DNA from: an uncultured Chloroflexia bacterium
GTDB taxonomy: Bacteria > Chloroflexota > Limnocylindria > Limnocylindrales > CSP1-4
Assembly (NCBI GenBank): GCA_963749705.1
Contig: CAVVNQ010000018.1
Coordinates: forward strand, 64,001-128,000
Reading direction: 5' to 3'
Length of the DNA: 64,000 nucleotides
The translations under genes and the position numbers were made by a program. The notes below the pieces were generated by a model. That model made no database searches. It was given only the letters and a program-made list of their open reading frames with translations, and was not told the origin of the DNA. This document shows, piece by piece, positions 40,914-43,303 of this stretch. Positions within the stretch are counted from its first letter, which is position 1. Each line of letters begins with the position of its first letter.

Positions 40914-42356
40914 ATGACGGATCAACCCGACCAGCCACCCGCTCCGCCCCCGGATCCCGACCGGCGACGCTTCTTCCGCGCGTTTGCCGGCGACGTGTTC
41001 TCGTCGGTCGGGTCGGTCCTGGGCGCGGCCCAGATGCTCCAGCAGCAGTCGGCGGAGGCCGCGCGCGAGCTGCTCAGCGTCGCCGAGCCGACGGCGGCTG
41101 CGCCGGGCGGTGCCGCCGCCCGCCCGATCGAGATCGACGCCTCGACGGCGGGCTTCCGGGCGCCGTTCCGATGGGACGCGGACGCCGACGTGTGCTGGGT
41201 GGTCGACCAGCGCCGGCTGCCCGACGTGCTCGCGGAGATCGAGGTCCGGGGCGCTGCCGACGGGGTCAACGCGATCAACGACGGCGCGGTCGCCGGGTCG
41301 ACCGTCCAGGCGCAGGTCGCCGTCGCGGCCCTGGCGATCGTGGCGAGCCGGGCGCGGAGCTCGCGACCGTTCGCGCGCCGGGCGACGATCCGCGGGGCCG
41401 CGAACGCGTTCCGCCTCACCCGCCCGGGTTCGGCTGCCGTGGCTGCCGCCGTCGATCGGATGGTGGCCCGCCTGGAGCTGTTCACGCACGACGCCGAGGG
41501 CGACGACGTCGCGGCTGCGCTGCGTGCCGAGGCCGAGGCGATCGTGTTCGAGGCGACCGAGGACCACGGCAGGCTGGTGGAGCACGGCCTCAGCGCGCTG
41601 CCGGACACGGCCGACGCGACGCTCCGCGTGCTGACCTTCGGCACCACGGGCCCGATGGGCAGCGGCCAGTGCGGGACGGCCATCGGGGTCATCCAGGCGG
41701 CGCACCACGCCGGTCGTCCGATCCATGCCCTGGTGAGCGAGACGCGGCCGCGCTTCGACGGTGCCCGGATCGCCGCCTGGGAGCTGGGGCAGGCGGGCGT
41801 CGGGTACTCGATCGTGACCGATGCGGCCGCCCCCGGCTGCATCGCCGCCGGCGAGGTGGACGCGGTGCTCGTCACGGCGGACCGCATCGCGGCCAACGGC
41901 GACGTGCTCGCGCCCGCCGGGACGTACCCGCTGGCCCTGGCGGCTGCGGCGGCGGGCGTGCCGTTCCTGGTCCTCAGCGCCACGACCGCGATCGACCCGG
42001 CCACGGCGACCGGCGCGGACGCGTCGATCGAAGAGGGGCGCCCGGGGCCGATCCTGCGCGCCGCCGGAACCAGGATCGTGCCCGAGGGCAGCCAGGTCCG
42101 GAACCCCGTCCAGGACCTGACGCCGGCCGCGCTGGTCACGGCGCTGGTCACCGAGGAGGGCGTGCTCCGTCCGCCGTTCGGCGAGCCGGTCGCTGCCGCC
42201 TGTGCCGCGGCATCCGCCCGCCGCGCGGCATCACTGGGCTTTGCGGCCCTGGCGTCCAAGGCGGCCGCGGCGGAGGACGCGGTGGCCGAGGCACCACCCC
42301 CGTCCGAGGCGACGACGGCAGCGCCTCCCGACCCCGGCCCGGAGGCGATCGGCTGA
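40914..42356 (+). CDS. MtnA/eIF2B-fold protein with degenerate active site and N-terminal RRRFF extension
   Basis: DQRRLP, TRP, ETRP, AAWEL, ADRIAANGD, GTY, NP..D.TP, TEEG align with MtnA; key ligand residues are substituted. Confidence 0.85.
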   Translation: MTDQPDQPPAPPPDPDRRRFFRAFAGDVFSSVGSVLGAAQMLQQQSAEAARELLSVAEPTAAAPGGAAARPIEIDASTAGFRAPFRWDADADVCWVVDQRRLPDVLAEIEVRGAADGVNAINDGAVAGSTVQAQVAVAALAIVASRARSSRPFARRATIRGAANAFRLTRPGSAAVAAAVDRMVARLELFTHDAEGDDVAAALRAEAEAIVFEATEDHGRLVEHGLSALPDTADATLRVLTFGTTGPMGSGQCGTAIGVIQAAHHAGRPIHALVSETRPRFDGARIAAWELGQAGVGYSIVTDAAAPGCIAAGEVDAVLVTADRIAANGDVLAPAGTYPLALAAAAAGVPFLVLSATTAIDPATATGADASIEEGRPGPILRAAGTRIVPEGSQVRNPVQDLTPAALVTALVTEEGVLRPPFGEPVAAACAAASARRAASLGFAALASKAAAAEDAVAEAPPPSEATTAAPPDPGPEAIG

Positions 42357-43303
42357 TGGCGACGGTGGCGGTCGGGGAGCGCGGCCGATCGGTCGTGGCC
42401 CGCGCCAGCACCGACAAGGAGACGCTGCGGGCGTTCCTCGAGCGCGATCGCCTGTTCGCCGCGTATGCCCTGTGCGATCTCGAGACGCGCGAGTTCCCGC
42501 GAACGCGGTGGGGGATCGCCACCAGCGGTGACGAGGTCATCGCGCTCGGGCTCGAATACGGTGGCGTCACCCCCCAGCCGCTGTTCGTCATGGGTCGCAA
42601 CGACGGCATCGCCGCCATCCTGCGCGACGTGCTCCGCCCGCGGGCGGCCTACCTCGCGGCCGACGCCGAGGCGCTGGCCGCCGTGGCCCAGGTCTACCGC
42701 GTGGAGCCCGGACCGCCGATGATCCGGATGACCGTTGACCGGGCCCGCTTCCAGCCCGCGCCGGCGTCGGTCGAGCGCCTCCTCCCCGTCGAAGCGGGCG
42801 AGCTCAACCGCCTGTACCAGCTCGGGTTCGCGGCATGGCTGTCGTCGAACACCATCGCCGAGGGCGTCTACTACGGGATCCGCGTCAACGGCCGGCTGGT
42901 GTCGGCCGCGGGCACGCACGTGATCTCGCGCGAGGCGCGGCTCGCCGTCGTGGGCAACGTCCTGACCCACGCCGATCATCGGGGCCGGGGGTACGCGACG
43001 GCCGTCACCTCGGCGGTGACGGCGGAGCTTCTCCGGTACTGTGACGATGTCGTGCTCAACGTGCGGGCCGACAACCCACCCGCGATCCAGGCCTACCGCA
43101 AGCTGGGGTACACCGAGCACCGCCGGTTCGAGGAGCGCCTCGTCCGTCGGACCGGATCCCCGTGGTCGGGCCTGACCGCTCCGCTCCGCCGCCTGTTCGC
43201 CGGGCGGGTCGCCGCACCGGCACCGCCCGTCAACCTCGACCAGGCCCATCCGCTCACGCCGCCGCCGGACGGCGCCCCGAGGAACCCTGAGGAGTCCCGA
43301 TGA
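42356..43303 (+). CDS. GNAT family N-acetyltransferase
   Basis: [16 protein letters not shown] acetyl-CoA motif, [13 protein letters not shown]. Confidence 0.88.

Follow-up and report, generated by a model that had tools for sequence, protein, structure and literature searches.

What is a gene for an MtnA-like protein doing in a cluster of S-adenosylmethionine (SAM) cycle genes when most of the residues that make MtnA an isomerase are gone from it? The question is raised by a 64,000-nucleotide stretch of contig CAVVNQ010000018.1 from an uncultured Chloroflexia bacterium (referred to below as the window), in which such a gene stands between apt, encoding adenine phosphoribosyltransferase, and a gene of the GNAT family that is followed by ahcY and, further on, metK. 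A first-pass annotation of the window had proposed that the product, either an intact pseudo-enzyme or an enzyme with a new, non-phosphorylated ligand, may pair with the GNAT. We find that the gene encodes a pseudo-enzyme derived, at the level of a clade, from a hitherto undescribed long form of MtnA, catalytic orthologues of which occur in sister genera. Our preferred reading, which we hold to be probable but leave well short of certain, is that its product is a catalytically dead descendant of this lineage-specific long form, retained for a second, non-catalytic role.

Loss of the MtnA active site

Residue equivalences were taken from phmmer alignments of the protein to the MtnA structures 1t9k, 6a34 and 2yrf in the PDB. 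Bacillus subtilis numbering was obtained by subtracting a 21-residue tag from the positions of chain 2yrf_A, the length of the tag being assumed from the chain length of 374. We take R51, R94, Q199 and K251 of MtnA to be the ligands of the phosphate, and C160 and D240 to be the catalytic residues. Each of the motif substitutions listed in the first-pass annotation is seen in these alignments: VRGAPAI has become VAGSTVQ, TxCNAG is TFGTTG, LQGxR is FDGAR and ANKIGT is LAPAGT, with ADRIA retained. R51 corresponds to A127, R94 to R170, C160 to G243, Q199 to D282, D240 to D323 and K251 to P334, such that the site reads ARGDDP instead of the canonical RRCQDK. Two of the six residues are retained, namely the equivalents of R94 and D240, as had been claimed, and the numbering behind that claim was reproduced on 2yrf_A. 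Of the four phosphate ligands, R51, Q199 and K251 have no counterpart in the protein, and the R94 equivalent alone is left. The position of the catalytic cysteine is held by Gly243, in TFGTTG, a glycine that is fixed across the window-type subfamily, and that of the catalytic aspartate by D323, in ADRIA, where Asp and Glu alternate among close relatives.

By sequence, the protein matches 1t9k with E = 2.7e-50. Among the NCBIfam models, the mtnA equivalog TIGR00512 (246 bits, cut-off 279), NF004326 (248.7 bits, cut-off 271) and the ribose-1,5-bisphosphate (R15P) isomerase model TIGR00511 (119.3 bits, cut-off 314.1) are not reached, and the eIF-2B-related TIGR00524 is passed marginally (186.7 bits, cut-off 185.85). 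These scores fit a divergent member of the MtnA family. The AlphaFold2 (AF2) model of the protein, with a mean predicted local distance difference test score (pLDDT) of 81, is predicted to adopt the two-domain MtnA fold, and in Foldseek it aligns to B. subtilis MtnA (2yvk/2yrf) with target-normalised template modelling (TM) scores of 0.89–0.91 (2yvk_A, E = 1.3e-25, TM 0.89). Judged by its residues, the window protein is very probably not a methylthioribose-1-phosphate (MTR-1-P) isomerase.

Catalytic and degenerate long forms share one locus

More than 1000 homologues are present in the protein database, and the best 120 of them share 58–91% identity with the window protein, span 422–785 residues and all carry PF01008; the small number of names available points to 'Candidatus Limnocylindrales'. 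By long form we mean an MtnA core that is preceded by a helix with the RRxFFR motif and a linker of variable sequence and that contains an ARRAxxRG insertion. The window protein has the helix, the linker and the insertion, and its gene has its place between apt and the tandem-GNAT gene. The extension, previously put at about 75 residues, amounts to about 80 because the PDB matches begin at query residues 81–116, and it includes RRRFFRAF.

Of 35 genomes searched in the window's family (f1), 28 yielded the long form, as did the window genome itself. Families f2, f4 and f5, with 46 genomes between them, yielded none, and the sole match among the 39 genomes of f3 is a short-type MtnA. In a sample of 401 genomes of the phylum, three unpublished ones included, the matches that reach the N-terminus come from f1; a further match, in G183, begins at query residue 25 and was read through three stop codons. 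The contig-level search for related loci returned mostly ordinary short MtnAs because the conserved word DRIAANGD dominated it, and its only long form was that of L009, from a metagenome-assembled genome labelled Chloroflexia. The N-terminus matches of L024 and L034 in that search were apparent only.

Gene order is conserved in relatives, a point that the first-pass annotation had suggested checking: all 20 of the fetched f1 loci have apt as the 5' neighbour of the MtnA-like gene and read apt-X-GNAT-ahcY, X being the MtnA-like gene, and so does L009. The substitutions are not conserved in the same way. In a family sample of 61 genomes, for which the states of the locus gene were combined from two sets of examined loci, all six residues (RRCQDK) are present in 27, and the gene is degenerate in another 27, with Gly at the C160 position in 23, Asp in three and Ser in one. 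One genome has a gene split across two frames that is canonical where readable, and six have no syntenic copy at the locus (absent or non-syntenic). Intact active sites in orthologues at the same locus had been named beforehand as contrary to the proposal of a pseudo-enzyme module, and we therefore regard the gene as a clade-level derivative of a working long form rather than as part of an old, dedicated pseudo-enzyme/GNAT module.

We examined 129 sequences, comprising the L009 protein and 128 representatives at 50% identity of at least 330 residues (the query and the short copy of its genome included). The RRxF motif pattern occurs within the first 140 residues in 59 of them, of canonical and degenerate types both; one of the matches, at residue 132 of P0228, lies well inside the protein. 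In quick maximum-likelihood trees the long forms make up one clade against the short forms, with a Shimodaira–Hasegawa-like approximate likelihood ratio test (SH-aLRT) support of 99–100. This clade, together with the complete sites at the same locus, indicates that the window protein derives from a working long-form MtnA.

In gene trees built without constraint, the degenerate sequences fall into two clades, and the clade with the window's genus is nested among canonical genera. A tree of the flanking genes (apt, GNAT and ahcY) places the window's genus beside the canonical genus g6 (SH-aLRT 93), with the degenerate genera g5 and g9 branching early. Since reversion of all six residues is improbable, at least two losses would follow under vertical descent. 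In the approximately unbiased (AU) test, however, a single degenerate clade is not rejected (p = 0.68), the constrained tree being 16.6 log-likelihood units better with the active-site columns included.

Several further copies were met in the family. Canonical-type genes split across two frames are present in L198 (G507) and L178 (G481) and are either assembly errors or recent frameshifts. Besides its canonical copy in the locus, G041 has a second, degenerate long-form paralogue (L223:4527-5987, + strand) with an RRAFLR N-terminus and the state FRGDDV, neighboured by genes for a transaminase, an enolase-superfamily dehydratase of sugar acids and an ABC transporter for sugars. In G053, of the window's genus, an extra long-form-like copy (L222:3365-4960, + strand) consists of the N-terminal helix and N-domain followed by Arg-rich out-of-frame sequence and is probably a frameshifted pseudogene.

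Selection on the degenerate gene

The ratio of nonsynonymous to synonymous substitution rates (dN/dS) was calculated by the method of Nei and Gojobori (NG86). Against the nearest genome, G053, it is 0.31 for the MtnA-like gene, 0.13 for apt, 0.19 for the GNAT gene, 0.08 for ahcY and 0.26 for the hydrolase gene that follows ahcY, and for the whole MtnA-like gene it ranges from 0.31 to 0.45 within the genus; as dS is near saturation in a genome of 72% GC, these and the following values should be read as rough, which has to be held against the conclusions drawn from them. In four within-genus comparisons by region, the ratio is 0.11–0.33 for the helix, 0.6–1.5 for the linker, which is an internal neutral control, and 0.34–0.45 for the core. 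Core values of degenerate pairs (0.22–0.41) overlap those of catalytic orthologue pairs (0.10–0.40). When 30 window-type and 38 canonical long forms are compared, 83 positions are at least 90% conserved in both sets, the change from Cys to G243 is fixed, and R51, K251 and the positions adjacent to them are relaxed. The mean frequency of the top residue in this comparison is 0.83 in the helix and 0.76 in the core. The neutral decay that had been proposed as a check on the pseudo-enzyme is not what we see, and continuing purifying selection, strongest on the helix, points to a protein that is probably non-catalytic and not a decaying relic.

A functionless relic would be one that decays slowly after its replacement and is kept by operon position or polar effects. 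Such a fate would fit the faster evolution after the loss (the stem of the window's genus measures 0.93, or 0.6 in a second tree, and the other degenerate clade is long-branched), the truncated, frameshifted extra copy in G053 and the complete disappearance of the gene from genus g4, which is detailed below. It does not fit reading frames that have stayed intact within the genus, at identities of 59–100%, and in the 29 degenerate sequences of full length in that second tree, nor the dN/dS pattern, with the linker at about 1 and helix and core below it, nor the 83 shared positions, and we regard it as quite improbable.

The same constraint could be that of a neofunctionalised enzyme, which would carry out a new reaction in the handling of SAM by-products on a different, probably non-phosphorylated ligand derived from ribose or a nucleoside. 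Such an enzyme might account for the conservation of G243 and of the nearly invariant Cys309 in the window-type subfamily, for the conservation of the fold elements ETRP, NGD and D323 in both forms, for a core dN/dS that resembles that of catalytic orthologues, and for the four genomes, named below, that have a methylthioadenosine (MTA) phosphorylase and a degenerate copy only. Against it, most of the former ligand positions are variable and not fixed anew (R127, H242, L281 and K334 are relaxed), the Asp/Glu alternation at the Asp240 equivalent is found within the subfamily, and no new conserved catalytic dyad is evident. Moreover, the degenerate sets are diverse between clades (ARGDDP, RRGQET, VRGSDP and QAGWSA), which fits loss and does not fit convergence on one new site. 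A new enzyme is thus possible but, in our estimate, unlikely.

With respect to transcription, a contig of 330 nt from a metatranscriptome library covers 40934–41244 with one mismatch and is a weak hint that the gene is transcribed. Each of the 17 sequencing runs listed covers at most 0.17 of the stretch, and of the four that were compared, either none covers most of the gene (41333–42326) or one does so thinly, from which nothing follows.

The N-terminal helix

The N-terminal segment is strongly conserved, with the consensus RRRFFRQFAGDV.TSVGSVLGAAQ.LQQQSAEAARELL, and combines a hydrophobic stripe with a conserved acidic residue. For residues 15–56, AF2 predicts a single helix at a pLDDT of about 56–66, followed by a disordered linker. 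In a search with the segment among proteins of 264–840 residues, 119 of the 120 matches listed carry PF01008. The exception, the 297-residue P0154, which we considered as a stand-alone N-terminal form, has Arg-rich out-of-frame stretches and is a frameshifted gene call.

We favour a docking or oligomerisation helix for this segment. An RRxFFR motif also brings to mind a signal of the twin-arginine translocation (Tat) type or an uncleaved anchor, by which the long forms would be exported or membrane-tethered binding proteins. RRxFF is indeed followed by an uncleaved-looking stretch rich in Gly, Ala and Ser and by an A-x-A-like site, the mean hydropathy of 1.03 lies within the range of Tat-like N-termini of the same genome, and clusters labelled TAT_signal (11% of members) and PF10399 Rieske (61%) are among the language-model look-alikes of residues 10–60, at scores of 0.78–0.81 that are at chance level. 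However, a conserved acidic residue (Asp or Glu) stands four residues past the motif, where a Tat signal has an uncharged h-region, conservation runs on for about 20 residues beyond the putative cleavage site, and the AF2 helix is continuous over 42 residues. The NCBIfam Tat models (TIGR01409 / PF10518) have no match in residues 1–60 at E ≤ 10, and a control N-terminus in the window that resembles that of a Tat lipoprotein (55156–55335, − strand; RRSFLAAAGLLGGSAALAAC) is matched weakly. The same segment is also present on orthologues with a complete site for a cytoplasmic phospho-sugar. We consider an export signal very doubtful.

A second mtnA and MTA phosphorylase

If the gene at the locus no longer encodes an isomerase, one should ask where the isomerase step is carried out. 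The window genome (3.6 Mb in 22 contigs, 88% complete) has a short canonical mtnA on contig 3, a copy that the first-pass annotation had recommended looking for. It scores 292 bits with TIGR00524, keeps the six residues (IRGAPLIG, THCNAG, RNQGA, ANKIGT) and adjoins a class II aldolase gene. This copy probably covers the isomerase step. An MTA phosphorylase is encoded as well (295 bits, above the NCBIfam cut-off). A second, short-type match is present in five of five genomes of the window's genus, and the three that were examined read RRCQDK. In the tree, the short copies of this genus (L001, which is contig 3 of the window genome G000, L218–L221, L172 and L194) do not group by genus, and their scatter suggests repeated acquisition or replacement of an accessory isomerase gene. 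G002 pairs with G035 and G053 with G496 in that tree, and the copy of G000 has a long branch to itself.

In the family at large, 26 of the 27 genomes whose locus gene is canonical were found to have MTA phosphorylase (TIGR01694, above cut-off), compared with 9 of the 27 in which it is degenerate. The genomes are related and one or a few evolutionary events underlie the association, which is descriptive and does not amount to a statistical test, a limit that has to be set against our reading. Another catalytic-looking mtnA copy is found elsewhere in 8 of the 27 degenerate-locus genomes, the set for which this tally was made, and 23 of the 27 either have no detected MTA phosphorylase or have a second copy.

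A third MtnA-like type was observed in L201 (G479), L205 (G478) and L216 (G080), with the state QRCQDK and the motifs TQSxGP, THCWxx and GHxxNKIGT. The Cys, Asp, Gln and Lys are retained in this type, which in G479 is separated from the gene for MTA phosphorylase by about 0.6 kb and may be the working isomerase of these three genomes.

The GNAT gene is independent of the MtnA-like gene

The stop of the MtnA-like gene overlaps the GNAT start (TGATG at 42354–42358), and the GNAT gene overlaps ahcY (ATGA at 43300–43303), both as the first-pass annotation had described. Together with the adjacency in all 20 family loci that carry both genes, the first of these overlaps is what would recommend an intact pseudo-enzyme paired physically or functionally with the GNAT and regulating AhcY/MetK or by-product salvage. 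Of this proposal, the intact and very probably inactive protein stands, on its residues and on its dN/dS, and the pairing is not supported. Of 121 genomes of the class, 120 have the GNAT gene (114 of 115 when six unpublished ones are set aside), essentially as one copy each, whereas the MtnA-like gene is limited to a single family. Among 15 checked loci that lack an MtnA-like gene, 13 keep GNAT, ahcY and metK adjacent, and every one of the 15 has apt no more than 3 kb away; the other two belong to small f2 genomes in which neither ahcY nor metK adjoins the GNAT gene. The same GNAT also adjoins fully catalytic orthologues. The class-wide occurrence and this adjacency indicate that the coupling is inherited operon structure, and we think a dedicated pairing highly unlikely.

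The AF2 model of the GNAT (pLDDT 83.9) is predicted to have a GNAT fold, and its Foldseek matches include 3ec4, VipF (6wqb), the clavulanate tandem GNAT (2wpx), MshD (2c27) and glycine N-acyltransferase (7pk1), with E-values for tandem GNATs from 1e-12 to 1e-9. A predicted complex of the MtnA-like protein with the GNAT scored 0.00 against a mark of 0.32 in a prediction run without controls, a score that speaks neither for binding nor against it. The sole apparent MtnA-GNAT fusion, the 785-residue P0016, contains an Arg-rich out-of-frame stretch and enters the GNAT frame by a frameshift. In the window, the GNAT frame is part of an ORF of 710 codons (41171–43303, + strand) that takes in the 3' half of the MtnA-like gene, a high-GC artefact; it is because of this open frame that 'fusion' gene calls such as P0016 arise in metagenomes.

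Weighing the proposal of a retained, non-catalytic descendant

Our preferred reading, that of a dead enzyme retained for another role, can be put as a sequence of events. An ancestral long form would have arisen in one family of a Chloroflexota class, within a cluster apt-mtnA-GNAT-ahcY-(hydrolase)-metK, and would have carried out the MTR-1-P isomerisation that follows MTA phosphorylase. In the window's genus, Gly has since replaced the catalytic Cys and one of the four 1-phosphate ligands is left, with the isomerase step probably taken over by the short canonical mtnA beside the class II aldolase gene. As the reading frame is intact and purifying selection is strongest on the helix, a non-catalytic role that was already present in the long form is most likely what has been kept. 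Our best guess for this role is a docking, oligomerisation, scaffolding or sensing function exerted through the N-terminal amphipathic helix; sensing of a metabolite in the remodelled pocket would be possible, as in the regulatory subunits of eIF2B. Adjacency and translational coupling to the GNAT gene are inherited with the operon and do not amount to a dedicated two-protein module.

Several points weigh against this reading and should be considered. The loss of isomerase activity is deduced from residues, and the role of the helix is a guess about a segment that AF2 predicts with moderate confidence. Four genomes (G488, G517, G503 and G514) have MTA phosphorylase and only a degenerate copy, and in these the degenerate form might retain some activity or another enzyme might have been missed. 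MTA phosphorylase was not found in G002, a 97% complete genome of the window's own genus. In genus g4 the gene is absent from all seven genomes, and four of four loci read apt-GNAT-ahcY-metK, which shows that some lineages can do without whatever role has been retained. As to how often catalysis was lost, the gene and flanking-gene trees point to two losses or more and the AU test allows a single one, and we reject a count based on the gene tree alone.

A bolder version of the retained role can be offered tentatively, as a possibility that we consider rather unlikely: MtnA may have gained a docking helix and a second role and then been converted in place, possibly repeatedly, into a sensor of ribose or nucleoside metabolites that tunes the surrounding SAM-cycle enzymes. 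If this were true, the conversion would be a recent and traceable bacterial replay of the step that yielded the eIF2B regulatory subunits.

The gene cluster

The coordinates of the features are collected in Table 1. From the MFS transporter gene to metK, all seven genes lie on one strand. A further ATGA overlap joins ahcY to the S9-type hydrolase gene at 44574–44577. The true start of metK is probably later than the one given because its profile match starts at residue 66. In a window of about 72% G+C, long spurious open reading frames (ORFs) are common for that reason.

Of 20 family loci with a long-form MtnA, 16 have the hydrolase gene inserted between ahcY and metK, and 15 of 15 checked loci without an MtnA-like gene lack it. 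On the opposite strand and 5' of the cluster lies a gene for a sigma factor of the extracytoplasmic function (ECF) type (36592–37206, − strand). An Rfam scan of 36000–50000 gave no match, and nothing was found in a scan of 38500–48500 for promoters and terminators.

Table 1 Features of the gene cluster, in window coordinates.
Feature	Position	Strand	Remarks
MFS transporter gene	38842..40269	+	Directly 5' of apt; NCBIfam DHA2/MFS matches, best TIGR00711 with 83.9 bits, below cut-off
apt, adenine phosphoribosyltransferase	40339..40860	+	NF002636 235.5 bits and TIGR01090 228.5 bits, both above cut-off
Degenerate long-form MtnA paralogue, 480 aa	40914..42356	+	Active-site state ARGDDP (canonical RRCQDK)
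N-terminal helix module, residues 12-56, RRRFFR motif	40947..41081	+	Most conserved part of the MtnA-like protein
Variable Ala/Pro/Gly-rich linker, residues 57-75	41082..41138	+	pLDDT <50 at residues 53-69; dN/dS 0.6-1.5; alignment length variable
MtnA/eIF2B-fold core, residues 76-430	41139..42203	+	PDB alignment, Foldseek, conservation
Former active-site codon A127	41292-41294	+	
Former active-site codon R170	41421-41423	+	
Former active-site codon G243	41640-41642	+	
Former active-site codon D282	41757-41759	+	
Former active-site codon D323	41880-41882	+	
Former active-site codon P334	41913-41915	+	
Tandem-GNAT acyltransferase gene, 315 aa	42356..43303	+	Weak RimI/GNAT NCBIfam matches at residues 171-256
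ahcY, adenosylhomocysteinase	43300..44577	+	TIGR00936 615 bits
S9/alpha-beta-hydrolase-type peptidase-like gene	44574..46571	+	Weak Dpp5/esterase NCBIfam matches
metK, methionine adenosyltransferase	46483..47880	+	TIGR01034 562.9 bits

Relation to known proteins of the fold

The window protein shares its fold with MtnA/M1Pi of B. subtilis (2yvk/2yrf), T. maritima (1t9k) and P. horikoshii (6a34), at a Foldseek E-value of about 1e-25, and its ancestor at this locus was a working MtnA. It differs from these enzymes in that Cys160, R51, Q199 and K251 are gone and in that it falls below the NCBIfam mtnA cut-off. Relative to the solved MtnAs and the short forms compared, it adds the helix and linker of about 80 residues and the ARRAxxRG insertion.

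R15P isomerase (T. kodakarensis 3a11/3vm6, P. horikoshii 5yfj), the sister enzyme of MtnA, has the same fold as well. According to PMC5789824, its 1-phosphate ligands are R22, R65, Q166 and K215 and its catalytic residues C135 and D204; the C135S variant is inactive and C135A no longer binds the substrate. The ancestor of the window protein would have followed the same Cys/Asp logic, whereas the window protein itself is without the Cys. The same paper states that eIF2B-alpha has Ala or Gly in place of the Cys and is without the 1-phosphate ligands. The parallel with eIF2B drawn in the first-pass annotation holds to this extent, as the window protein, of the same PF01008 fold as eIF2B-alpha (e.g. 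7kmf and 3ecs), likewise has a small residue in place of the Cys and has lost 1-phosphate ligands. Unlike eIF2B, however, it is bacterial, has no eIF2/eIF2B partners and is closer to MtnA in sequence and structure; its loss is recent and on the level of a clade, and ligand sensing by it is putative. The likeness is one in kind and would not make it a member of the eIF2B family.

A precedent for a second role of an MtnA-family protein besides methionine salvage is human MRI1/MRDI, for which a role in cell invasion is reported (PMC2758758). MRI1 has kept its catalytic site, though, and is unrelated to the N-terminal module of the window protein. The portion of the methionine-salvage review PMC6302742 that was accessible makes no mention of an inactive MtnA. 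In the full-text literature searched, which leaves out subscription journals, we found no description of MtnA pseudoenzymes or of such MtnA-like paralogues, nothing specific on MtnA paralogues of Chloroflexi or methionine salvage in Limnocylindria, and no description of the RRxFFR helix, the most constrained part of the protein.

Many of these proteins are named methylthioribose-1-phosphate isomerase in their sources (JGI names and one NCBI name). For the degenerate half of the family, this name would mistakenly assign a step of methionine salvage to uncultured Chloroflexota from soil. Catalytic and non-catalytic orthologues at one locus in sister genera provide a natural matched set for the change from an isomerase to a pseudo-enzyme, the route that has been proposed for the regulatory subunits of eIF2B.

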